Source: Tubulanus polymorphus
Lineage: Eukaryota; Animalia; Nemertea
DNA: 64,000 nucleotides
Assembly: GCF_964204645.1 (NCBI RefSeq)
Contig: NC_134031.1
Span: forward strand, 18,173,910-18,237,909
Reading direction: 5' to 3'
Shown: one piece after another, positions 1 through 23,500 of the stretch
How positions within the stretch are numbered: the first letter of the stretch is position 1
Layout: each line of letters opens with the position of its first letter
Translations under genes and position numbers: made by a program
The notes under the pieces: generated by a model
What the model was told of the DNA's origin: nothing
Seen by the model: the letters and a program-made list of their open reading frames with translations, nothing else
The model's database searches: none

Positions 1-348
1 TGATTTATAACAAGCATTCATATCAAATGACCTTCAGTAAAAAGTGTCCTCCCTTAATCAAAGACCGGTAAAAACTATATATAGTTTATTATCACTGATA
101 AATGATTATCTTACGGAGAACTTTGAATTGTGAACCCCTGGGGAGACACAAGAGATAAGATAAAAAATGTGCAGGACGAGATCTAAAAATCTTTCCATAC
201 AACACTCTACAATATAATGAGCAGACCAGTGACCGACCCACTGAGCCTATTTATATCCAGTTAATAATACCTAGAGGGATTAAACTCTATACTTCAAATG
301 ATATATAAATGTTAATCCCGGATAATTGATATCAGTTACGCAACTCAC

Positions 349-733
349 CTAGACGTAGAAATAAAACAGTACTGAACATCGATAGCGCAACTGGAGCGAA
401 TACTCCGGGAATCGTCGATAGGTGGCGGTGTCCTCCACTCTCTCCGATACGGACCCATGTCGACAGTCGCCTGCGATCGCTGAGGTCCTCACCTCCGACC
501 CCAGCCCCAGCACCGGCAACGCCTGCATTGTTTATACTCAAATTACGTAATAAAGGCGTCCGATCGTCTATTTCGTCTGTACCTACACCGGGAGGAGGCA
601 TATCGATAGAGGTGGAATATCCATCATTCCCTTCTCTATCCTCCCCTCCTCCTGACGACATACTGCTCCCTAACTGACGAATAAAACTCCTCAATCTATG
701 AGATGAGGTATACCTGCGAGGAGACGAGTCCAT
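349..733 (-). CDS. SLC12A9: SLC12A9-like cation-chloride cotransporter, proximal first coding exon (1b); gene continues left of the window
   Basis: ATG at 733. Encodes a dileucine motif DRTPLL and TM1 LSTIPGVFAPVALSMFSTVLFLRLG, matching SLC12A9 TM1 (GVVVPTVLSMFSIVVFLRIG). Phase-1 donor G|GTGAGT at 348. Confidence 0.88.
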
Positions 734-883
734 CTTTACTGTCACTCACCACACCGCCGCCGGAACGTAAATAAACTACTGTCAAAACCGACCCCAGAAT
801 TTCACTTCCTCGTAGGTAATCCCTCTGTTGTTGTGATGACGTCATTTTGAATCGTATCATGTGACGGCGGAATTCCGGACAAA
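734..883. promoter_or_regulatory. Compact bidirectional promoter between SLC12A9 exon 1b and TTC36
   Basis: Only 150 bp separates the divergent ATGs. Palindromic CRE TGACGTCA at 837-844, ETS-like CCGGAA and CACTTCC, and YY1-like AAAATGGCGG overlapping the TTC36 ATG. Confidence 0.65.
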
Positions 884-2880
884 ATGGCGGACGAGATCAG
901 CGAACACGATTCGGCGATTTTAAACAAGATTTTCAATCCTAATCAACCGTTCGAGCCGAGTACAGCGCGCGTGAATACAGCAGCAGACGACCAGAGAGAA
1001 ATAGAAACTGAAACCACTCGTGAAGTGAAGCGGTAAGTGACGTCAGCGCTGTGAAATAGTAGGAAATACGCGGCGTCTCGTCGATCAATCAGCAGACACA
1101 GTGCGCGTTTAGCTGAGACAACAGCTGTGTGCATAAATACACCACAATACAGAGTGTAGCGAAACTAAAACCGGTTTCAATGTTCTATAGTCCACCACGA
1201 GTACATAATGAATACATGAATTATTTATGGATCAGATTAGATAAAGCAAACCGGGCTGGTTGTTTCAATGACTGGTCAGTGTTGAATGTGGTGATATAGG
1301 CCTACTGAAGTTGACAAACCAGACCGCTAATTCAAACCTACCACACACGACACAGTGTCGACTGTTTTTAAATCAAACCAGTCAAATTAGTCTAAAAATA
1401 AATTCTATATTTGATTAAACTTCCTTCTTGCGCTAAAATACTCAGTAACGATTACAGGGGAATCCCATTACATTGAACTTCAGGTGCAGACCAGGTTTTA
1501 AGCTCAGCAATTCCAGACCCAGTTCCATATTTTTGGATCCAGTTCAACAATTCAAAAACCCAAGTTCCACAGTTCTCGATCGAGTTCCTCAGTTCTCAGC
1601 TAAATTCAATTGTATAATTAATTGTATAGTTAAAATGTGTTCAGTTCCAACTTTAAAGAGTCAACTGTAGATCTAGTTCCTAGTTAAAGATGATATTAAT
1701 ACCAATGCATCGGAACAATCAGTTCAAATTCATAGAATTGTTTTTTACCCGGTAATAAATAATTCAGATAAATAGTTTTATATACGATGAAATGCTAGTT
1801 TTGTTTAATGTTGTATAATTCAGGTTAGAACTGGCCGGAGTGAAAGCTGCAGAATCGGGAGATTTCAAGAATTCTCTCGAGTTTTTCACCCGAGCTATAA
1901 ATCTCGAACCGGAGCGAGGGTCCGCTTATAACAACAGAGCACAAGCGCTTAGACTAAAAGGAGATGTGGAAGGTTCGTTTCCACATTCAGAAGAGTCAGT
2001 TCCACATTAAGGAGCTAGTCCAGGAGTTGACTCCATCCACAGTTGAAATTTTTTCAGCCTCAAATTCCAAAATTCTATTTCAAGGGTATAAAAACCCTCA
2101 AATTCTGAGTTTTAGCCCGTGACCCCTTAGAAAATATGCTTCAATCTCAATAAACTCTCAGAAAGTGAAGCTGATTTGTTATTCTTTGAGATAATGTGAG
2201 AATTTCTGGAGATGAAGTCGTTTTATGTCATGTTTTTTTTTTCAGGTGCTCTACAAGATCTGAATAAATCAATAGAACTGACAAGTGGTAAAGGACAAGT
2301 TGCCTGTTTAGCATTTACACAACGGGGTCTAATTAGAAAACTGAAAGGTTTGTTGAACTGTCCACAGAAACGCAAATACTCGATACAAAACTGAAATTGA
2401 CTTCGACTGATTTCAAATTTCATAACGCAGCTGGACTTGGTCTAGTCATCATTTGATAAGTCATCGCATTAGATTTTTTGGTCCAAATTTGTATTTCCAA
2501 GTCAATTCAATTAGTTTAAGTCATCATTTGGATAAGACATCATGTCATCCCTAATTTTGAGTGCCAATTTGTATTTCTAATTCAATTTCCTAAGCGTAAG
2601 TCGTTATTCGGAAAATTCGACATATGATCAACCCAACTACTACCGTAGCATCATCATAAGTAAAAGATGGACCCACAGCTACAAATAGCTTCGAACTGGT
2701 TTTGGTTTTTTTATTGCAGAAGATGTTGAAGGAGCTACAAATGATTTTCAGAAAGCCGCGAATCTCGGATGTCCGTTCGCTAAACAACAAGTCGTTGAAA
2801 TGAATCCATACTCGGCGATGTGTAACAAAATGTTAAACGAGGTTATGGTTAAATTACGCGAAGGAAATCCTGTCGAATGA
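884..2880 (+). CDS. TTC36: Tetratricopeptide repeat protein 36, 4 exons, 186 aa: join(884..1032,1824..1972,2246..2347,2720..2880)
   Basis: Spliced translation [23 protein letters not shown]...[13 protein letters not shown]...[30 protein letters not shown]...[12 protein letters not shown]...[35 protein letters not shown] matches TTC36 throughout. All introns GT-AG; 561 nt in frame; AATAAA near 3289. Confidence 0.95.
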
Positions 2881-4086
2881 GTGACATCGTTATCACCATC
2901 GCAAACATTCCAATCTAACGCAGTATTAGAGCTTGCAACATTTCACGTTTGATATATCTGAACTGTTCTACAATTGTTGGCTGAATATTTGACTTGAAGA
3001 GTTATAATTCATTTAGTTGATACTCAATAGAGTCAAATTTCAACGAACATCTGTGGAACTATGGAACTTGATTCAGGATCCGGTTCCTCAGTTTGGCTGT
3101 AGAACTGTAGAACTGAGCTGGCAGTATATATTGAGCTGTTTGAAATGAAGTGTGTGGATTTTTCCTTGTTATTATTGAGTGAATGAGTGAAATTCTTTTT
3201 TTTTGTAAATTGATCTCATTTTTTGGAGATATTTCTTCAGATTTAGTCACATTATTATTACATTGTTTATTGGTTAAAGGCGAATGTTAATAAATCCTTT
3301 ACATAAATATTAATCATATTTCAAGTATTATATTATTTTGGTCTGAGGTCGTCAACTGGAAGAGGAATTACTGGAATGGGTAAAAAAAACTTCAGTACCA
3401 GGAAAATAGACCTAATACCGAAAGCAGCGTGTAGATGGCAGCACGAGATGGCCACCGATGATTATATCGATATTGATAATTTGAACGCAGCACCTGCTGC
3501 CTAAAAGAGAAGGTGGTAACAGCCGTCAGTAGACAATCCTTTATTGATCTGATCATTACATTCTATACAGAAAGTAAATTCTACAGATCTTTGTAAAATG
3601 ACACTAAAAGTTATTGTTGTCAAACTATCGTGTAACAGACTGTAACAGAGAAACGCAGTGATCATTTCATAAAACCAAATTGTTGAAAAACCGTTCAAAA
3701 CTTCAGGTATTCGGACACGACCCCCCGGCCCCCACATCCCTGAAGAGATCGAAATCAATTCACACAAGTCGCATATAAAAAATTTTGAATTTTGAACAAA
3801 TCTCTGAAGACTGAGAGAAGAAATCTTTTGTAAACAAACAAGTCAAATCTTCATAGTTTGGGATTTTTATACGCTGGAAAAGATGATTCGAATATTTTAA
3901 ATATTTTCCGTAAATTTTCAGGGATGTTTAGTTTTGGAAACAAGTTACAGTTCGACGGGTTATAACTGTAGACAGAGCCGATATTTCCAGACTAATTAAA
4001 ATTGTAGATCAATGACCCAGACAAACAGGGGAAGAAGCCTACATTCACTGAAACACAAATAACATATGTGTGATCTACAAGCTGCA

Positions 4087-5180
4087 ATGATTGCTCTCTG
4101 CAGGTATGATCTACGAGCAATCATCTCAGAGTTCAGATGATTGCTCTCTGTAGGTATGATCTACGAGCAATCATCTCAAAGAGTTCAGATGATTGCTCTC
4201 TGTAGGTATTATCTACGAGCAATCATCTCAAAGAGTTCAGATGATTGCTCTCTGTAGGTATGATCTACGAGCAATCATCTCAGAGTTCAGATGATTGCTC
4301 TCTGTAGGTATTATCTACGAGCAATCATCTCAAAGAGTTCAGATGATTGCTCTCTGAAGGTATGATCTACGAGCAATCATCTCAAAGAGTTCAGATGATT
4401 GCTCTCTGTAGGTATGATCTACGAGCAATCATCTCAAAGAGTTCAGATGATTGCTCTCTGTAGGTATTATCTACGAGCAATCATCTCAAAGAGTTCAGAT
4501 GATTGCTCTCTGTAGGTATTATCTACGAGCAATCATCTCAAAGAGTTCAGATGATTGCTCTCTGTAGGTATGATCTACGAGCAATCATCTCAAAGAGTTC
4601 AGATGATTGCTCTCTGTAGGTATTATCTACGAGCAATCATCTCAGAGTTCAGATGATTGCTCTCTGTAGGTATGATCTACGAGCAATCATCTCAAAGAGT
4701 TCAGATGATTGCTCTCTGAAGGTATGATCTACGAGCAATCATCTCAAAGAGTTCAGATGATTGCTCTCTGTAGGTATGATCTACGAGCAATCATCTCAAA
4801 GAGTTCAGATGATTGCTCTCTGTAGGTATTATCTACGAGCAATCATCTCAAAGAGTTCAGATGATTGCTCTCTGTAGGTATGATCTACGAGCAATCATCT
4901 CAAAGAGTTCAGATGATTGCTCTCTGTAGGTATGATCTACGAGCAATCATCTCAAAGAGTTCAGATGATTGCTCTCTGTAGGTATTATCTACGAGCAATC
5001 ATCTCAGAGTTCAGATGATTGCTCTCTGTAGGTATGATCTACGAGCAATCATCTCAAAGAGTTCAGATGATTGCTCTCTGAAGGTATGATCTACGAGCAA
5101 TCATCTCAAAGAGTTCAGATGATTGCTCTCTGTAGGTATGATCTACGAGCAATCATCTCAAAGAGTTCAGATGATTGCTC
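4087..5180. repeat. Tandem satellite, 50/52-bp self-complementary unit, ~21 copies
   Basis: Unit GAGCAATCATCT-C(AA)AGAGTTC-AGATGATTGCTC-TCTGTAGGTATGATCTAC, near-identical copies. Confidence 0.95.
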
Positions 5181-5204
5181 GTAATTAGGTATGATCTATA
5201 TATT

Positions 5205-5460
5205 GAGGTGACTGACCGAGTGACTGTCCGACCAAAGCGGACCAGAGTGACTGACCAGACGAGATATGAGCGACCAATCCGAGTGATTGACCAAATCGAC
5301 CACGAGTAACCGTCCGGACTAACAAGAGTAACGAACCGGACCAGACTGACCCGAGTGACTGACTGACCAAACAGGATTTGAGCGACCGACCGAACACGAG
5401 TGGCCGGTCAGACACAAGCGACCGACCGAACTGATGCGGACCTGAGTCGGTTGTTCGGTG
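5205..5460. repeat. Degenerate GACC(G/A)-based low-complexity repeat
   Basis: Recurring GACCGA/GTGACTGACC motifs. Confidence 0.6.
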
Positions 5461-5929
5461 GTTTATGTAGCTATAAAACGTTTCATACGATGATAACACA
5501 GAAATCATTGAATAGAACAGTAACAGGTGTTTCATATAAAAACGATTCACGATAACATTGTTATAAAAATGTGCAGCACGTTTTAGGATGAAGATCGTCT
5601 GAAATCCTCTGTATTATGTGATGAGTGAAATTTTACCTACAACATATTGAATTATCGCCTGAAGTTGAAGTAAGCCTATGGCCTGACCAGGTCCCAGTCC
5701 CCCAGTCCATGAAACATGTCCATAGATAAAAAGATTTCTATCACTATTTTCACTCTCCTCTCCCTGGGCCTGGGTCCCTCTCCTCTCCCTGGACACCTTC
5801 CCAACTCTCAGGGTTATAGTCGTTTTTAGACTCGGGTTGGCAAATTATTATATATTATACAAGATTTTGTTAGGAAATAACTGTTAATTATTCTTTATTG
5901 ATGAAATTAACATAACATAACATTAGGCC

Positions 5930-6200
5930 TACCCTCCTCCCTGGAACCCTCTCTTCTCCGGCCTGAAACCCTCTCCCTGGAACCATCCCTCCTTTAGCAA
6001 CCCTCACTCCCTCCGCTTCGTACCCCCTCTCCCTCTCCCTGGAACCATCTCTCCCTCTGCCTGGAACCCTCTCTTCTGCGGCCTGAAACCCTCTCCCTGG
6101 AACCATCCCTCCCTTAGCCTGGAACCCTCACTCCCTCCGCTTCGCACCCCCTCTCCCTGGAACCATCTCTCCCTCTGCCTGGAATCCTTCTCCTTCTCTC
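5930..6200. repeat. Pyrimidine-rich degenerate tandem repeat (CCTGGAACC core)
   Basis: Repeated CCCTGGAACC(C/A)TC blocks; explains the spurious ORFs at 5888-6222. Confidence 0.7.
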
Positions 6201-6336
6201 CCTGCCAGTTCAGATGATACAAATTAAAAGTGATTTTTGCGTCTGCCGTTGATTCAGAATGAGATCATCAGACATCGATCGTCACCCCCGGCGACGAGCA
6301 GACGCGCCGAAACAACAATATGCGCCGTTTTTTCTC

Positions 6337-6350
6337 GTTGCCACGGTAAC
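6337..6350. promoter_or_regulatory. RFX X-box motif
   Basis: GTTGCCACGGTAAC fits the X-box consensus GTNRCC-N0-3-RGYAAC and lies in a CpG-rich patch. Confidence 0.4.
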
Positions 6351-7052
6351 GCTCTACCAGCAGACAGACGAGACACGTAACACGGTAACTTAGCCCGAGG
6401 AGCCGTGATTGACAGAACGAGAGTAAGTCACGATATCATCAGAGACCAGTGTATGAGAGGGAGAGAGGGGGAAGAGAGAGAGGAGAGAGAGGGGGAAGAG
6501 TATGTCTCATTGTTTCTGGCAGTAAAATGATGAATACAGTTGGTGACTGTTTATGCTGTTTATAATTGAGCTATTAATTTGATGAGGTCATCATTATACC
6601 TGGTAATAGTAACTACTGTCTGAGTATATCCACACACTACAACCGACTGCTGCCCGGATTATTTATAGCCATGCAGGTCGTGATAAACCTGAACCTTATA
6701 AACTACAGATCCTCAGGGCAAACAAAATGCGAAACCAGTTTCTGGTTTAACTAAAATATTTGGTTAAGATGCTTTTTTCCTGTAATTATTCAAGATTACA
6801 ACATGAAGGACAAAGTCACAGGCGCAGTTTTTCCATGTATGATGTTTGACGAAAAAGAGGACTGAATTGAGATTGATTCAAGCCTCAGATTTCAGCCCAA
6901 GATTCAAATTTCGGACTCTGGGTTGTCTGGTCTCTTGGAGATGTCTGGGTTCTCTCAATTCTCTGGGTTGCCTCAATTCTCTGGCTCCGTTCTGCCTCAA
7001 TTCAATCTAGTTTTCTCGTCAAATATAAATATATTATATAAACAATACATAC

Positions 7053-7407
7053 CGACTCGTTGAAATACGTTAGTACTGAGTTGACCTAACGCTACCGGAC
7101 CGAACACGCCCCCTAGTGTCTTTAACGTGCGTTTCGCCGTATCGCTGTACGACTTCCCGGCGTTCTCCACGTAACTCAATCCGGTCAGATCGTGGTAATA
7201 TTTGCCTCCGTCCGACAGTTCATCCGAGCCGTTCGGTCGTCGACGGTGATGTAATCCGCCATTGTTACTACCGTTACTACGGCGATTGCTACCGTTAAGG
7301 ATGGGTTTTTTCTCGTCCGTTTCGATCCCGGGCGAGGTTGACGTGTTATTCGAGTTTGTATCGCTTGGTTCCTGCTTAGCCCGGATTTCTATTCCATCCA
7401 GCTCCAT
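7053..7407 (-). CDS. SLC12A9: SLC12A9-like distal alternative first coding exon (1a), or first exon of a paralog
   Basis: ATG at 7407. Ends in the TM1-homologous LKTLGGVFGPVALGQLSTNVFQRVG with a phase-1 donor G|GTATGT at 7052, the same codon position as the 349..733 exon. Confidence 0.75.
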
Positions 7408-7676
7408 TTAAACGTCGTATGAATTTCGAATCCGTGTTTTTGTTATGAATGAATGTCAGATCTTTATTTGGAAGACGGCACCGGCAGCAGCAGCAGCAGC
7501 AGTCGTAGCATCACGAGCGGAGCGCAGTTGATTCAACTACCGAGATTCAATACCTCACACGGTTTACATCCTAGAAATATCACAGACAAAAAACATCGTT
7601 CATATACATACAACGATAATCTATGAGACACAAGACCTACATTGACTTTGGATTAAAATGTTTGTATTCAATTCTG

Positions 7677-9605: not shown

Positions 9606-10816
9606 CCTGAAAATGGCCTTAATGAATAAGAATTCCGTAAAACCCGAGACTCAACCTCAAAATCAATCAACATTCAATATAGGCCTACATAAAACTATCA
9701 GCATAGAAAACATCTGTCTGTCTTCCATACCGGTCCCTCCCACTGTTGTGTGTTTAATTTTACATCTAGAATCAAATCAATAGTTTAGCAACCTTTAAAA
9801 TGGAAGTAACTGATATTCATTCCCCTGAGAGTGAGAGGGGGTTTAAAGTCCTGAAGCCAGGAATAATCAACAGTATGTAATCCTACAGTCAGTAATTGAT
9901 AAAACATCTGTTACTGAACGATTTATAATATACTACAATCGATTTAACACTTAATTCCACAATCATCTTGTATTACAAACATTATATAAACACCATACAT
10001 AATCTAATTCAGGTTAACATGGACCCTGCGCCCTGGGGCCTGCAGTGGGCATCTGAAAAACTATAGCATTAAACACACATGGATATGAGTTTATATTCAT
10101 GCATCAAATAAAGCCTATTCTACCATTAGCCTGAAACAAATTACATAGGCCTATACTCCTTACTTAAGTTCATTTAAAGTGCACTATTTCTTGTTTAAAC
10201 AGTTATTTTATACTTTATTCTTTACATTTTATGCTTAACGTCAGAAGGACAATAACATTTCACTAGTCACATAGACAGAGCATTTGTAGAGACCCGTAGA
10301 TTATCCTTTCATCATTTTAAGACCCTAAACAGAGGGGCTTATATCAGTAGAGAAAACATGAAATTTTATGAATGCATTTTATTGGTATTAGTTAGGACTA
10401 ATATCTAATAATCGAATTGTATATATGTATATTCGCACAGGCCTATAGTGTAACTTACAGCTGACCCAACTGAGACTTTTATCACTGACATACCATTTAA
10501 ATACAAAATTAGCCTACATGAATACAAATGTGATGAAAACTTCATTTTAAATCGTTTTACCTTTTGTCACAGAATTAAGATCCACTGAGATCGTGTGGTA
10601 TATACAGGTATACTACTGAAGAGCGTATGCATGTGAATCATTGACAACTGTCATCAGTGTGTAGTTCACCATACAGCCGCACGAGAGCGCCACCGATCAG
10701 CTTTCAAATCAATCTAGTTTATTGTTGAAGAGTGACGAGTCATTCTACATTAGAAGAATAATAATCAGTATTTGTGAGAATTATTGACTGTGGGTTCAGT
10801 CCGGGAATTATTCGCT

Positions 10817-11701
10817 ATGTCTGGAAGAGTGGTGAGTATTACTGGAAATCATCGACGGGTCGCGAAATTTCAACAAATCGAAAACATTTCTGATACTCTG
10901 TTTTGGAAAGGACCCGGGGTGGGGAGGGTGTTTAATACGCCCCGGGGCTGGGCTAAGAACCACTGATTCTGGTTTGAGACGTTTTAAACTCTGATCTGAA
11001 TCGGTTTACATTTATTTACTGCTTTAAATCGGTCGAAATTCCGAGATAAAAATAATTTTTACCATCGCTCGGCTCCACCGGCATCCATTCGCGCGATTCA
11101 GAATGGCTGATAGTCACCGGATTTCCCTGGCGCTCGATGACGCAATTTAGAAACAACCAATCAAAAAGCTGCTACTGCCATTACGCAATAGACTAAGCCG
11201 TGTTCCGATTGGCTGTTTCGTTAGATTACGTCGTTGTTGGAGACGCGCGAAAGTCATTCGATTCGAATCCCAAATATATTCTGAAAAACGCGAAATAATA
11301 TTTCAACCATTTTATCTAATTTTCAGAGTAAAAGTAAGAAACAACAAATAAAACTATCGGACGATGACTTAATCACGTTATCGGTTAAAGATCTGAACGG
11401 GTTGTTGAGCGGTTTGCCGGCAAATGAGGTGCGAAAACTGAAACATAGGCGACGCACGTTGAAGAATCGCGGCTACGCGGCACATTGCCGGGAGAAACGG
11501 GTCGTTCAGAAAGAAGAGTTAGCGACGGAAAAAGAGACACTGGCGCAGGAAAACGATCGTCTTCAACGCGAGAACAATGACATGAAAGACAAACTGAAGA
11601 ATTTAAAAAGAACGTACGAACAATTGTCGAAGTTTAAAAATTCTCAAGTGAAAAACGTTAGAAAAGTGAAAAAGAAAATAAAAACCGAACCAACGGATTG
11701 A
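10817..11701 (+). CDS. MAFK: Small Maf bZIP transcription factor (MafF/G/K-like), join(10817..10831,11327..11701), 129 aa
   Basis: Extended homology region [15 protein letters not shown], basic region [21 protein letters not shown] and a leucine zipper, with no transactivation domain. Acceptor TTTCAG at 11326. Upstream micro-exon ATG TCT GGA AGA GTG|GTGAGT is in phase 0 (less certain). AATAAA near 11863. The symbol denotes the family, not one-to-one orthology. Confidence 0.88.
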
Positions 11702-12243: not shown

Positions 12244-12333
12244 CCCTCGATAGCTCAGTTGGTAGAGCGGAGGACTGTAGAGTTGACACAGTTGGATATC
12301 CTTAGGTCGCTGGTTCAAATCCGGCTCGAGGGA
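12244..12333 (+). tRNA. tRNA-Tyr (GTA) with 17-nt intron (12281..12297)
   Basis: CCCTCGATAGCTCAGTTGGTAGAGCGGAGGACTGTAG-[intron]-ATCCTTAGGTCGCTGGTTCAAATCCGGCTCGAGGGA. Perfect acceptor stem, A/B boxes, canonical 37/38 intron, TTTT terminator at 12337. Confidence 0.97.
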
Positions 12334-17500: not shown

Positions 17501-20500
17501 CCGGCCATCTATCTACCCTGTACATAACACTTTTTAAAATCATGATCAAGCTACAATAACCGACCTGGCAGCTATAGAAATGAACTGATTACAAATTTCA
17601 TTAAGATAAACTGATGTATTCTGAATGATGAAGATAATGAATAATCCCACAATTGATGATACTTCATTGTTGTTGCTCCGAGAATGATCTAGATTGATTG
17701 CGAAACTGTCAGATAAATAAACTTTGACGGATCATCATTGTGGGGGATTATTCATAATCCCTGAACAACTTGTGCACCACTCAGCAGGTTCAAGATTTAT
17801 TTACGCTTAATTAATGAGACCAGTAGAAATCTGAAACCGCAAAAAATATCAGTCGTGACAATACATGAAGGGATTACACAATGAAACCTGTTGCCCAAAT
17901 ACACTTTTCATCATAGAGTATAAAGAAAGCTCCTGAACACACAGGTTAAGTGTGAAATATCATATTCTATTGAATATCTGGATCTAATTACATAGTTTTC
18001 AGTTCATATTTAACTCTTCGACAGCAAGTTTGTCATGATATATTTTCAGTTACGCAAAACAGCCCCCTAACTTGTAAGGTATAGTAAATGTGAAAGGTTA
18101 ATTGATACTTTTGAAATGGCAGCACAGAGCTAAGACATATGAAGCACTTTGTATCATATTTCATTATGACTTGCTTTACATGGCTTAACCCTGTGCAGAC
18201 ATTTCAAAAGTATCAATTAAAGCTTTTAAAACTTAAGCCTTCTGAATTTACCATTTTAACCACAATAAATTCAAGGCAGGAGAATGTTTATTGATACCAG
18301 CGTAAAGGATCTGGGAGATCACATGAACCACTGGCTACTCCTTCCCTGGTAGGGGGTCTAACATCTTTCCAACGAGTAGTTAATAGATTCAACCATATCA
18401 TAAAATTTTTGTTAGCTGTTTTCTGTAGCTTTACAAGAATTCATTTGTCAATTCCATTCATTTGAGTTCTGGATTCATGAACAAATTCAATTTGGTGCAA
18501 TTGATTTTCCTATAAAACATTTACAAATTCGAGGTTTGCATTGGAGAAAAAAAAACCAAATTCTTGTAGTATTAATAGCTACTGGTATATCTAATTTAGA
18601 TACATTCATACAATATGAAACTTTCACAAAATCTGAGTCTATTGTGTTAGATTTCAGAGAATCAATTTTCTATTTGCTGTTAACAATAAATTTTACAAAT
18701 GAATTGTAGCTGTAATACAAAGACTTTAATGATTTTATCAAATTACATTTTCAATACTCGAGAAGACCAGTCCCAGTATATTCTCAGACACTCTCATTTG
18801 ATCCTCATGAACGATGAATTCTACTCAGATGCAGATCGGTCGAGCTTATACCAGTTACATGTCTATTATGTCTCTTGCAAACAGGTCTGGAATCTACCTT
18901 ACTGTGTCATTGACCATTCTGCCAATCATATTCCTGTTTGGAACCTTCGGAAATTCAGCTACTTTCCTGATAATGACAAGTCGCAGATTCCGCAGTTTAT
19001 CTTATGCTAACTATCTGATCATTTTGTCTATTAGTGATTTCACATTCTGCATCAACTACTCACTGCTGCCTGCTTTACAGTTTGCTCTCTTGCACATCGG
19101 CGACGGTCCTATATTCATCATGAATTCACTGATCAGTTGTCAAATTTACGAATTTCTAATGGCGGTTGCAGTCAGCAATAGTTCGTGGTTGATAATTGCA
19201 ATATCTCTAGAACGCGCGGCAGTTGTGCTCTTCCCGTTCACATCTCGTTTGATATGTACACCGAGATTTGCTAGATGTACTGTATTGATAATTACTGCAG
19301 TGAATGTACTGATTGTTTATCTTTCACCTGCTGTGACGTTACATTTCACGACTCCATCGTTTGGATGTTACCATACATTAGCTGACCAAATTACATTCTT
19401 CGCCATAATGGCCGTCCATGCTTACCAATTACCGCTGCTTCTAATTTTTCTTACAAATTTGGTTATAATAATTCAGTTATTCAGAGGATCAAAAATGGTT
19501 TCGACTGATCAGAAAACTACAAAATCAAAACGTACAACCATAATGCTTCTAACGGTTTCACTGGCATTCGCGATGTTCATACTACCATCTTCTGTTTCTG
19601 TATTTTTACCAATCTCACAGGAACTGAAAGATTTTCTTTACGATGTTTTCACACATTTCCATCTTTGTAACTTTGTGATAAATTTCTACATATATCTTTT
19701 ACTGGGACGAGAAATTCGTGAATATTTCTGTATGAAAATCCGCTGTAGAAATACAATGAAATAACTATCGAATACAAGTTTAAGCTATCTTTCGATTCGG
19801 CAATTATGTAGACAACAGATTCAACAATGTCAAGTGGAGTTTTACCAATATTTTGAATGTCTATGATATCATATTCTAACTTCATTTGTTAATAAGTCCC
19901 CGTCAACTACGTAGGCGATATCTCATAATTCCAGTTCAGCCACCATTGCCACTAGAAGTAATGGTAGTTCAAGAATTCAAAATCTGTACATTTAACAGAA
20001 TTGATTCTTGGCAAATGTAAATTCAAAGATGTTTTTAATTCTAACAAATCAATGACAGCCACCATAGAAAACACAGAATTTCTCTTAAAGATACATTTGT
20101 CATGATATGAGACAGTCAGAACACCCTCAGGCAGTTAGGACACCAGGTCTGTACCTCTAGAGTCAATCAACTCACTAGTTCTTTTGTCAATGACTCACGA
20201 ATTTGACTCTAGAGTCAACAAGTCATTAGTTAGACTCTTTTTCTTACCTCCATCCATTCAAATGAACCGATCAAACCAAATTCCTCTGCGTCCCAGTTTG
20301 CAAATATAATCGACCGTCTCGGTTGCCAACCAGTCGATGCTTTCAACGAACCGAATGCTTTTACGAGTTCGTTTAAAACTGCCGTTCCTCCAGACGGGTC
20401 GAGGGCACCTGCGTTCCATGCATCTCTATGGTTACCAACAATCACATATCTATCGGGCTCTTCGACTCCACGGATGACTCCAATCACGTTCGTGATGTTG

Positions 20501-23500
20501 ACCGATTCTCGAAAATTGTTTACAACGACTTTGACTTTCCTGAAATAAAGATGTAGAAGTGAGTCATGAGGCTTACCTGAAAGTCATTGAGTCCAACCAG
20601 GCTTTGAGGTATACCCTGTGAGTCATGAGTCCTGCTCCTTCCGGGAGCACCTGTCCTCATAAAACTTACCAATTAGATTTAGTTCCTTTAAAACCGGGAC
20701 CAAGCGCATAATCAACTTCAGGTATACTACCTTTCCATTTCGTTTCGATCGGACCGGCCAAATCTCTATAAAACATTAACAACATCAAACATCATTTCCA
20801 AATATTTACGAATCAGGGTCGAGTTTCACAGTTAGGGTTCATTATGCCATTACAGATCCATATTCGATACTTTTCAAAGCCACTTTCACAAATTTTATTG
20901 CCAAATATAGTAATTCCTGAAGGAATCATCAATGACTGATGAAAATAGAAATAGATAAACAATAATGGCAAGAAAGAACTTAATTTTGTCCAGAATTCAC
21001 CAGGAATTTGCTTGACACCCTCAATTTTCTCTCCTCTCTCCTCATTTTCAAGGCCTTACATGAAAATTCAATGCTATTGAATTTTGAACAAGATTTTCTC
21101 GATTCAATGCTATTTCCTGTTTTAAGGTACCGGCCGCAATAAACCCGATAGTCCACAGTTTAATCAGTATTGTGTCTCATGATTTATGAAACTTATGAAA
21201 AATCGTTCTGTACAACTGATATGACTGATGTTTGATGGGTTGTATTTATGACTTACTGCAGTAACAGTTTAGCATCATCGTATCCAATTGGTTGAACTGG
21301 AATCGTTGGGAGATCAGTGCGATTTTCAGGCAATCGGTAAGCACCAACTAGAATAATAAATACATATGTATATATATATATATATTAATGAATAGACAAT
21401 TCATTATTTGTACGTCCTAACCAACTGATCAGATCAGCAGACAGTAAACTCTTCCTAACTCAAATCAATTGAGACCAATGATTATGACACTGAAATTTGC
21501 TAGTCAGCCTGTGCTGAAAACTTGCCATACATCGGAAGATAATCAGGATCCAGTTCCTCAGTTAAGAGTTAAAGTTAACTCTTAAGTTAGCTCATTGAAA
21601 ATTAACAGATTTTAACTCAAGAGTTGAATCTAAGTCGGAACTATTGAACTGGATCCAGGGGATTTACAAGCATAAAGATCCTGTCATGTACACTCGTATG
21701 GCGTAGTCGAAGAGGATAAAAGACCAGGCTACAAGTAAACTATAGTCACGCTGAGCCGGGGTCGATGATTCTTCTGTGAATTTACCAATCATATCCATTC
21801 TACTAGAGGTATTTCGGAGCAGACGCACAGACTTACCAACTGACGGATTATTAGGTGTCAGCGGGTCGCCGCCTCCATCGTGACGGATAGTACCCATCTG
21901 AACCGCGTCACCCGGGATCCACCATCCGTTCGGCCAAACTTTCTCCGGTTCGAGAGCGAAATCTTTCGGATCCGTGAACAGTATCACACCCTTCGCTCCT
22001 CTCTTCGTCGCTTCTTGGATCTTATCGCCACGGAAACCACGCCCGTATCTTATTATTACGATACAATCTTTAACGGTTATATTGTGTTTCGATTCTAAAA
22101 GTTCATAATCTTGTTGTTGTCCGTAGTAGGCGTATACTAAATCTCCCTGTCAAAAATAAAATTACAAAACATGATGATGGGAGAAAGTGTGTAAGATCAT
22201 CTGCTAAAGCTACTCTAGGTCTATAGTCAGGTATAATAGGCAAATTGTCTTAACTCAGCCTCTGATTCAAATGAGGCTTAGATACACAGTTGTTTGAGAC
22301 ACAGCGTTGAAAATGAGCTACAGGTTTATTTGAATCTGGATCCAGTGAGTTCACATTTAGTGCAGACTTTACTGTACAGTTCAAACATTGGAAAATGAAT
22401 TTATTTCGACTGAACATATTTTCAACTTATTTTCAACTGAAGAAACAACTGCAGAACTAATTCTCTGATTCCACATCTTCAGATCATTTAACTATTTTAA
22501 CTGAATAAAGTGTAGGCAAGTTTTTAATGGTTTACCTCGACAGTCGCGTTTGGTGCGAAGGCGTTATAAGCGTATAATTCGGCTCCGGATCGTACACCAG
22601 TACTGTTACAATCCACTCTTACTTTACCGCTGTCATCTAATACATAAACTCTATTAGGATTATTATCACTGAAACAGACAAACACAGAAACATCACTGAT
22701 TCATTATCACTGAAACAAACACAGAAACATCACTGATTCATTGTTGATTCAGTTCAGTCTTGACGTTTATTGATAGACTAAATCATAATGATCAAATCAA
22801 TTATACATTAGAACAAACATGAGGTCATGAGGATATTCAAGGGCATGTAGCCAGCCACAAACTAGAACTTGGGGCCAGTCATAGACTAGGGCTTTGGGCC
22901 TGTCATAGACCAGGGCATTGGGCCTGTCATAGACTAGGGCTTGGGGCCAGTCATAGACTAGGGCTTTGGGCCTGTCATAGACTAGGGCTTTGGGCCTGTC
23001 ATAGACTAGGGCTTGGGGCCAGTCATAGACTAGGGCTTGGGGCCAGTTATAGACTAGGGCTTGGGGCCAGTCATAGACTAGGGCTTGGGGCCAGTAATAG
23101 ACTAGGGTTTGGAGCCAGGCAATTGGGCTATGGTCTAATGAGACAATTGGGCTATGGTTTTATAGACAGTTCATCTTTCGCAAGCTAAATGTCTCCAAAT
23201 TCACAACAATGATACCAAATCCTAGATGGTTCTTTATTATTACTACAGCGGTGAAAACCGGTAACTCAAAGGTTAAAGATACGTCATCTCCGGCAGAAAC
23301 TTCTTATCTATGCATATCACATGTTTGTGAATAGAAATGACGGAGATGAAGCTTCACTGATGACAATAAATCCACACAGGAAATGAAAAGTATTTCAATA
23401 AGCCACAGAGGACTGAGTGTCATCAGAGAGAGCGAGAGAGAGACAGAGAGAGAGACAGAGAGAGCTGAGAGAGCTGAATGCAGGTGAGACAGAAAACCTT

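Follow-up and report, generated by a model that had tools for sequence, protein, structure and literature searches.

Two homologous first coding exons for the N-terminal tail and first transmembrane helix of an SLC12A9-like transporter in Tubulanus polymorphus

SLC12A9 is among the least understood of the cation-chloride cotransporters. The mammalian protein, also named CIP1, is described as cotransporting ammonium and chloride in lysosomes, to which ExxxLL and YxxL motifs direct it, in the one mammalian study on which its ammonium selectivity rests (10.1101/2023.05.22.541801). For another member of the family, NKCC2 (SLC12A1), a published account reports three variants of exon 4, A, B and F: these are homologous copies, which vary the second transmembrane helix and the ion affinity (PMC7818487). 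The present analysis concerns an SLC12A9-like gene of the ribbon worm Tubulanus polymorphus and two of its exons, indicated as 1a and 1b, located within a stretch of 64,000 nt of NC_134031.1 (18,173,910 to 18,237,909), hereafter the window, to which all positions refer. Each exon encodes an N-terminal tail (N-tail) and the whole of the first transmembrane helix (TM1; further helices are numbered accordingly), and the two end at the same phase-1 codon. Sequence comparison makes it probable that this one gene gives rise to two full-length proteins, in one of which a variant TM1 is predicted to retune ion affinity or selectivity rather than to change the fold.

Both exons lie on the minus strand. 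Exon 1a (7053..7570), which has its acceptor at 7570, is composed of a 163-nt untranslated part and of a coding part starting at ATG 7407, with the N-tail and a variant TM1 (block 7054-7131). The coding part of exon 1b (349..733) comprises an N-tail with an acidic dileucine motif and a TM1 of ancestral type (block 350-427). The open reading frames (ORFs) from ATG 7407 to 7053 and from ATG 733 to 349 both leave a remainder of 1 when their length is divided by three, and the donors, TCG/GTATGT after 7053 and TAG/GTGAGT after 349, are both in phase 1. An earlier note on this DNA had described two minus-strand, ATG-initiated exons 6.3 kb apart, with a homologous end codon and phase-1 GT donors, and the sequence agrees; the TM1 sequences and the tail motifs listed there (DRTPLL in one tail, EKKPIL and YHDL in the other) are also found as stated. 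Some of its points need amending. The start of exon 1b had been placed at ATG 661, which is in frame, but the corresponding RefSeq model, isoform X1, starts at the upstream ATG 733. Exon 1a, moreover, is the first coding exon rather than the first exon, as it lies behind a non-coding one: contigs of two sequencing runs, X2 and X5, have a loose end at 7572, with a single match in the window, at 10569-10592. The match falls in the 3' end of the upstream exon (10561..10592, minus strand), to which the contigs contribute the letters 10563-10592 and which is followed by the donor AAG/GTAAAA after 10561.

The TM1 blocks of 1b and 1a score 64 against each other, with at most 30 for the next best among 29,510 stop-free scanning windows in six frames. 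Searches by tblastn with exon 1a or 1b as query detected no other SLC12-like sequence in the 64-kb window, in agreement with the earlier statement that no SLC12 exons are present between the two; the 6.3 kb separating them does, however, hold a four-exon TPR-protein gene. No Pfam family was matched by exon 1a alone or by exon 1b alone.

The identity of the gene is given by the proteins to which the exons belong. Exon 1a is a 100% match to one protein among 189 candidates, the RefSeq SLC12A9-like isoform X2 of Tubulanus polymorphus (P0001). Exon 1b, read from ATG 733, is the N-terminus of isoform X1 (P0002), found in a two-member cluster with isoform X2; used alone as a query for longer proteins, exon 1b gave no match among 1,823 candidates. 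The two isoforms already exist as automatic RefSeq models, and share an identical 852-aa C-terminal part, the first residue of which is the Gly whose codon the phase-1 intron interrupts. PF00324 (AA_permease) and PF03522 (SLC12) score above the cut-off in both. The closest representatives are the SLC12A9-like proteins of sea urchin and amphioxus, with 952 and 927 bits, versus 282 bits for KCC4, which was scored in a different search: judged by sequence, the gene falls into the SLC12A9/CIP1 subfamily rather than among KCC, NKCC or SLC12A8.

Runs X2 and X5, which come from different studies, were taken as transcript-holding because their contigs skip GT..AG introns. In both of them, contigs containing exon 1a continue into neighbouring exons at both ends, and exit at 7051 into the residues GFVVGQVGILE, as read by eye; since these letters are the start of the shared body, exon 1a is spliced to it. 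Exon 1b is found within a spliced contig of run X2, which maps as far as 347 and then holds 27 further letters, and the 1a junction contig of the same run likewise stops 27 letters beyond the donor. The equal stops suggest that both exons run into one downstream sequence, as in an assembly graph; from this contig geometry, together with the RefSeq model, we infer that 1b is joined to the same body as 1a. The locus would therefore feature homologous exons of equal phase on one shared body. Of the other data on this end of the window, run X6 placed no record on 1-4050, run X4 gave short unspliced pieces only, and run X5 did not reach the 1b donor, all of which is neutral as to the 1b join. As for the junctions, which the earlier note had proposed to check, the join of 1a to the body is read in contigs from two studies, that of 1b is deduced. 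Two outcomes were held there to be fatal to the pair, the absence of any splicing of exon 1a and its joining to a paralogue; both were looked for and neither was seen, as 1a joins the body shared with 1b.

It is accordingly extremely improbable that exon 1a is a pseudo-exon or part of a separate paralogue. Such a reading could appeal to the position of the gene body, outside the 64-kb window, but is largely refuted by contigs from two studies, in which 1a is spliced to the body it shares with 1b. The differences of run X5 in the coding part of exon 1a, moreover, are all synonymous (4 out of 4, versus 23% expected per random change; 1 out of 2 in exon 1b), and 1a has counterparts in two further phyla.

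These counterparts were retrieved by taking residues 88-135 of the 1a isoform as the query, which gave three proteins among four candidates: the Tubulanus protein, isoform X2 of the lamp shell Lingula anatina and isoform X2 of the snail Littorina saxatilis. The latter two each have an X1 partner in their own cluster; the isoforms of each species part at the residue where those of Tubulanus do, and their remainders, of 854 and 844 aa respectively, are identical. The shared bodies are 59-61% identical between the three species. Over the 26 aa of the TM1 block, identities between species amount to 23, 19 and 21 for 1a with 1a, and to 20, 17 and 20 for 1b with 1b; within species, 1a and 1b share 14, 13 and 12 residues (14 in Tubulanus). 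A TM1 tree was built from 26 columns of 19 animal rows, which were picked by hand; in it, the 1a helices of the three species form one clade, with support 99/97, while the pairing of 1a with 1b of the same species is rejected by the approximately unbiased test (p-AU 0.010, 0.0025 and 0.0048). An independent duplication in each species is rejected by the same values. A recent duplication or conversion was also considered, and is unsupported: 46 of the 79 TM1 bases, and 6 of the 14 codons for the same residue, are identical. The simplest reading of the sequences is that a single duplication likely preceded the split of ribbon worms, lamp shells and snails. The nemertean, brachiopod and mollusc lineages separated more than 500 million years ago. 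Metagenome scans yielded no match for a strict 1a pattern and 14 loci, none of them SLC12-like, for a loose one; the ESM Atlas returned only generic amino-acid-permease clusters. The exon pair is real, spliced, under selection and ancient.

The importance attributed in the earlier note to the TM1 difference is backed by this conservation in three phyla. TM1 and the ion-site columns were compared in an alignment of 93 rows, 90 of which are non-1a, composed of the six isoforms and of 87 of the 150 representatives; the 63 omitted ones are for the most part fragments without TM1, rows of very great length and some close duplicates. When 1a is aligned to KCC4, Gly108 corresponds to N131, Gln109 to I132, Ser111 to G134, Thr112 to V135, Asn113 to I136, Gln116 to L139 and Arg117 to R140. 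All three 1a rows feature Gly in the N131 column, Gln in the I132 column and Asn in the I136 column. Gly and Gln are each found in 3 of the 90 non-1a rows, Asn in none: all 90 have I, L, V, M or F in the I136 column, Val being the residue of 1b, and the regular presence of a hydrophobic residue at this position of the SLC12 family is broken only by the 1a Asn. Of the replacements originally listed, SMF>GQL, V>N and L>Q, the Gly, the Gln and the Asn prove to be fixed in 1a; the last one does not, as Gln in the L139 column is present in 2 of the 3 1a rows, Littorina having Leu. The 1a signature was seen by eye in none of the other proteins compared.

The role of these positions is known from KCC4. 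There, main-chain carbonyls of N131 and I132 coordinate the cation, while the first chloride is bound through the main-chain amides of G134, V135 and I136 (PMC13294203); V135 and L139 line an outer pocket, while R140 forms a gate (10.1101/2020.07.26.221770). Side chains do affect transport: the published values are 63% for N131S, 83% for V135T and 80% for I136E, with mock at 38% (PMC11994965). The claim of the earlier note that 1a and 1b may have different substrate sites is weakened, since TM1 holds the ions by main-chain and not by side-chain atoms. The shared body keeps the columns providing side-chain ligands and gates, namely Tyr193 and Glu199 in TM3, Thr346 and Gly347 in TM6, and Tyr496 in TM10, and the TM1b gate Arg117 is present in 1a. 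In the structure that AlphaFold gives for the 1a isoform (mean predicted local distance difference test, pLDDT, 84.9; disordered tail 1-90) TM1 is broken at 111-112 into helices 97-110 and 113-125 (pLDDT 95 and 86), with TM1b starting at Asn113, and TM6 is broken at 345-351. The best PDB matches of the model are NKCC1, NCC and KCC, with a target TM-score up to 0.85 for the transmembrane domains; no solved SLC12A9 structure is present among the 35 matched PDB sequences. The 1a isoform is predicted by the model to adopt a LeuT-type fold of 12 transmembrane helices, with discontinuous TM1 and TM6.

A regulatory role is a first alternative to retuned transport: 1a would not transport alone, and would act as a dimer partner of 1b or of other cation-chloride cotransporters (CCCs). 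A modulatory subunit of this kind is ASIC2b, where N-tail and TM1 are swapped, and it counts in favour of the idea. Further support comes from the KCC2 data, in which a polar residue in the I136 column nearly abolishes transport (I115E 46%, mock 34%; PMC10518353), and from the first description of SLC12A9 as a CCC-interacting protein, as reported in the study of the mammalian protein (10.1101/2023.05.22.541801). Glu, however, is charged, while Asn is not; the Arg of the gate is retained in 1a, as are the Pro and the break in the helix, and in three phyla 1a has fixed specific new residues, instead of drifting. A regulatory partner is, on balance, decidedly unlikely.

The same replacements may be read as a switch of substrate class, for example to a polar organic solute or to an uncoupled ion flux, operated by the 1a helix together with Asn350 of TM6b. 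Three polar or small replacements do lie on the unwound segment forming the central site. Asn350, located in the shared TM6b beside the second chloride site, is found in the three two-isoform species and in two Gln-bearing flatworm rows, and in 0 of the 84 other rows; the single TM1 of flatworms has the 1a-type Gln in the I132 column, and support for placing flatworms with the 1a clade is no higher than 85/83. Such a distribution could arise from kinship, without co-evolution, and in one row, P0046, the Gln is present but Asn350 is not. The body, in addition, retains all side-chain ion ligand columns, and a change of substrate class appears improbable. A more general proposal, by which a second TM1, selected by promoter, would have persisted in Lophotrochozoa for >500 million years and would switch SLC12A9 to a different substrate, with flatworms possibly having the variant-like helix only, is tentative and rather unlikely.

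In contrast to the helices, the tails show no homology between species (14 of the 15 tail pairs have p>0.14). A match between the 1a and 1b tails of Tubulanus (p 0.019, one of the 15 tests) is lost on multiple-test correction. As the tails do not align across species and the 1a TM1 is conserved, selection falls on the helix. These data bear on the view that the second exon matters for its promoter and tail, i.e. for tissue, timing or compartment, the TM1 changes being tolerated and transport little altered. Main-chain coordination of the ions, as described for KCC4 (PMC13294203), fits this view, as do the separate upstream regions and the distribution of the strict [DE]xxxL[LI] motif, found in the 1b tails of all three species and in none of the three 1a tails, although motifs so short are given here without a chance control. 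Yet the conserved feature is the set of 1a-specific TM1 residues and not the tails, and TM1 columns are identical in all three species in 19 out of 26 cases for 1a, versus 16 out of 26 for 1b; a role confined to promoter and tail is therefore very doubtful. The tails of 1a, furthermore, contain near-matches to the dileucine motif in 2 of the 3 species and YxxPhi in all 3, while YxxPhi is found in none of the 1b tails. Different trafficking, as originally proposed, is accordingly a weak claim, as the strict dileucine favours it and the near-matches and YxxPhi of 1a do not: because of the latter, both isoforms may be endolysosomal.

Retuned transport is the most likely reading, since side-chain changes matter in KCC4 and KCC2 and the 1a residues are fixed across three phyla. 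It would involve one exon duplication, before the divergence of ribbon worms, lamp shells and snails, and two promoters. The proximal one, shared with the TPR gene, would drive 1b, where an ancestral-type helix and a strict acidic dileucine tail would make a likely endolysosomal cation/chloride cotransporter; the distal one, about 10 kb upstream and beside a Maf gene, would drive 1a. The two proteins would share TM2-TM12 and the C-terminal domain, and differ in the N-tail and in the copy of TM1. Gly and Gln, at the two cation-carbonyl positions, together with the Asn that occupies the third amide position of the first chloride site, where TM1b starts, would alter the geometry and polarity of the central site of 1a, akin to the effect of NKCC2 exon 4 copies on kinetics.

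Several points weigh against this reading. The TM1 ligands are main-chain atoms, as stated for KCC4 (PMC13294203), and KCC4 I132S transports at 90%, not significantly different from wild type (PMC11994965). The alignment behind the structural model, made for the 1a isoform only, is dominated by ordinary TM1 rows, which makes the agreement in fold weak evidence. The 1b junction is known from length and from the RefSeq model, and not from the letters of its 27-letter extension; since run X2 possibly lies behind the RefSeq models, these two lines are maybe not independent. The Lingula and Littorina pairs are known as proteins, not as exons. With no more than 26 columns in the tree, the grouping of the 1a helices may in principle also reflect convergence under selection. 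Retuned transport of 1a, finally, is a prediction from sequence and analogy.

Exon 1b and the non-coding exon upstream of 1a each face a neighbour on the opposite strand. The TPR-protein gene (884..2880, plus strand, four exons), which we take to be TTC36-like, is nested in the 1a intron and lies head to head with exon 1b, its ATG being about 150 nt from ATG 733; its Pfam TPR matches are under the curated cut-off (best E 9.7e-06), and its three GT..AG joints are found in run X2 contigs. One contig of this run covers both exon 1b and the first exon of the TPR gene, which suggests overlapping or abutting divergent 5' ends. A bZIP-Maf ORF (11285..11701, plus strand; PF03131, E 4.1e-25, above cut-off) is divergent from the upstream exon of 1a. 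As the TPR gene faces 1b, and the bZIP-Maf ORF faces the 1a upstream exon, transcription of the two isoforms likely begins in divergent promoter regions, separated by about 10 kb. A candidate 5' leader of 1a (7511-7569 and 10632-10887, minus strand) contains ten upstream ATGs, which open ORFs of 1-24 codons; one is a Met-stop at 7569, and none overlaps the main ORF. A run X2 contig extends 841 letters past 7572. The 1a intron also contains, at 4087-5198, a partly palindromic 52-bp tandem array, with 21.5 copies and 96% matches. Further away, a tRNA gene is located at 12244-12333 (plus strand), with an anticodon unresolved in ARAGORN; it is presumably an intron-containing tRNA-Tyr. A rhodopsin-family G protein-coupled receptor (PF00001), encoded by a single ORF at 18811-19764 (plus strand), lies opposite exons of a gene for an M28 peptidase that carries a PA domain (20230-22149, minus strand), and possibly within one of its introns.

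When compared with the known systems, the Tubulanus protein has the same AA_permease and SLC12 domains as mammalian SLC12A9, and its closest relatives are named SLC12A9-like. The acidic dileucine of the 1b tail resembles the motif which, according to the mammalian report, targets SLC12A9 to the lysosome, and the TM7 and TM10 tyrosines of the mammalian protein are also present in the Tubulanus body. The TM3 Tyr193, on the other hand, is kept in Tubulanus, while mammalian SLC12A9 is reported in the same text to be without it, a feature linked to K+ exclusion (10.1101/2023.05.22.541801). Tyr193 is shared by the three spiralians; across the alignment, 48 of the 93 rows have it, including many invertebrate SLC12A9-like proteins. 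Ammonium selectivity, as a consequence, cannot be assumed for the nemertean protein, and ammonium-over-potassium selectivity may, on this sequence distribution, not be ancestral in SLC12A9.

The word "isoform" is absent from the main text of the mammalian SLC12A9 paper (10.1101/2023.05.22.541801), and the accessible part of a shrimp SLC12 survey contains nothing on SLC12A9 isoforms (PMC12428425). No paper on an SLC12A9 TM1 swap was found in a literature search, whose reach excluded most subscription journals and supplements. The pair is a natural controlled chimera, in which two proteins are identical from TM2 on and differ in tail and TM1 only; it lets the effects of TM1 side chains on selectivity be tested in a site where backbone atoms act as ligands. 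It also hints at a role in the handling of ions or ammonia, so far unexamined, in marine invertebrates.

Three systems besides mammalian SLC12A9 are comparable. NKCC2 belongs to the same family and has duplicated homologous exons, one per transcript, encoding a membrane helix; there, however, TM2 and loop 1 are varied by internal splicing in vertebrates, while here TM1 and the N-tail are varied by the choice of the 5' exon (PMC7818487). KCC1, KCC2 and KCC3 have N-terminal splice variants, arising from alternative 5' exons in a cation-chloride cotransporter, but these alter the cytoplasmic terminus, which is reported to take no part in ion translocation, whereas here the whole TM1 is swapped (PMC4301019). 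ASIC1 and ASIC2 use alternative 5' homologous exons for the N-terminus and the first helix (PMC4494069), although ASIC is a trimeric channel family and SLC12A9 a LeuT-fold cotransporter. The swap is thus known in kind, from NKCC2 exon 4 and from ASIC1a/b.

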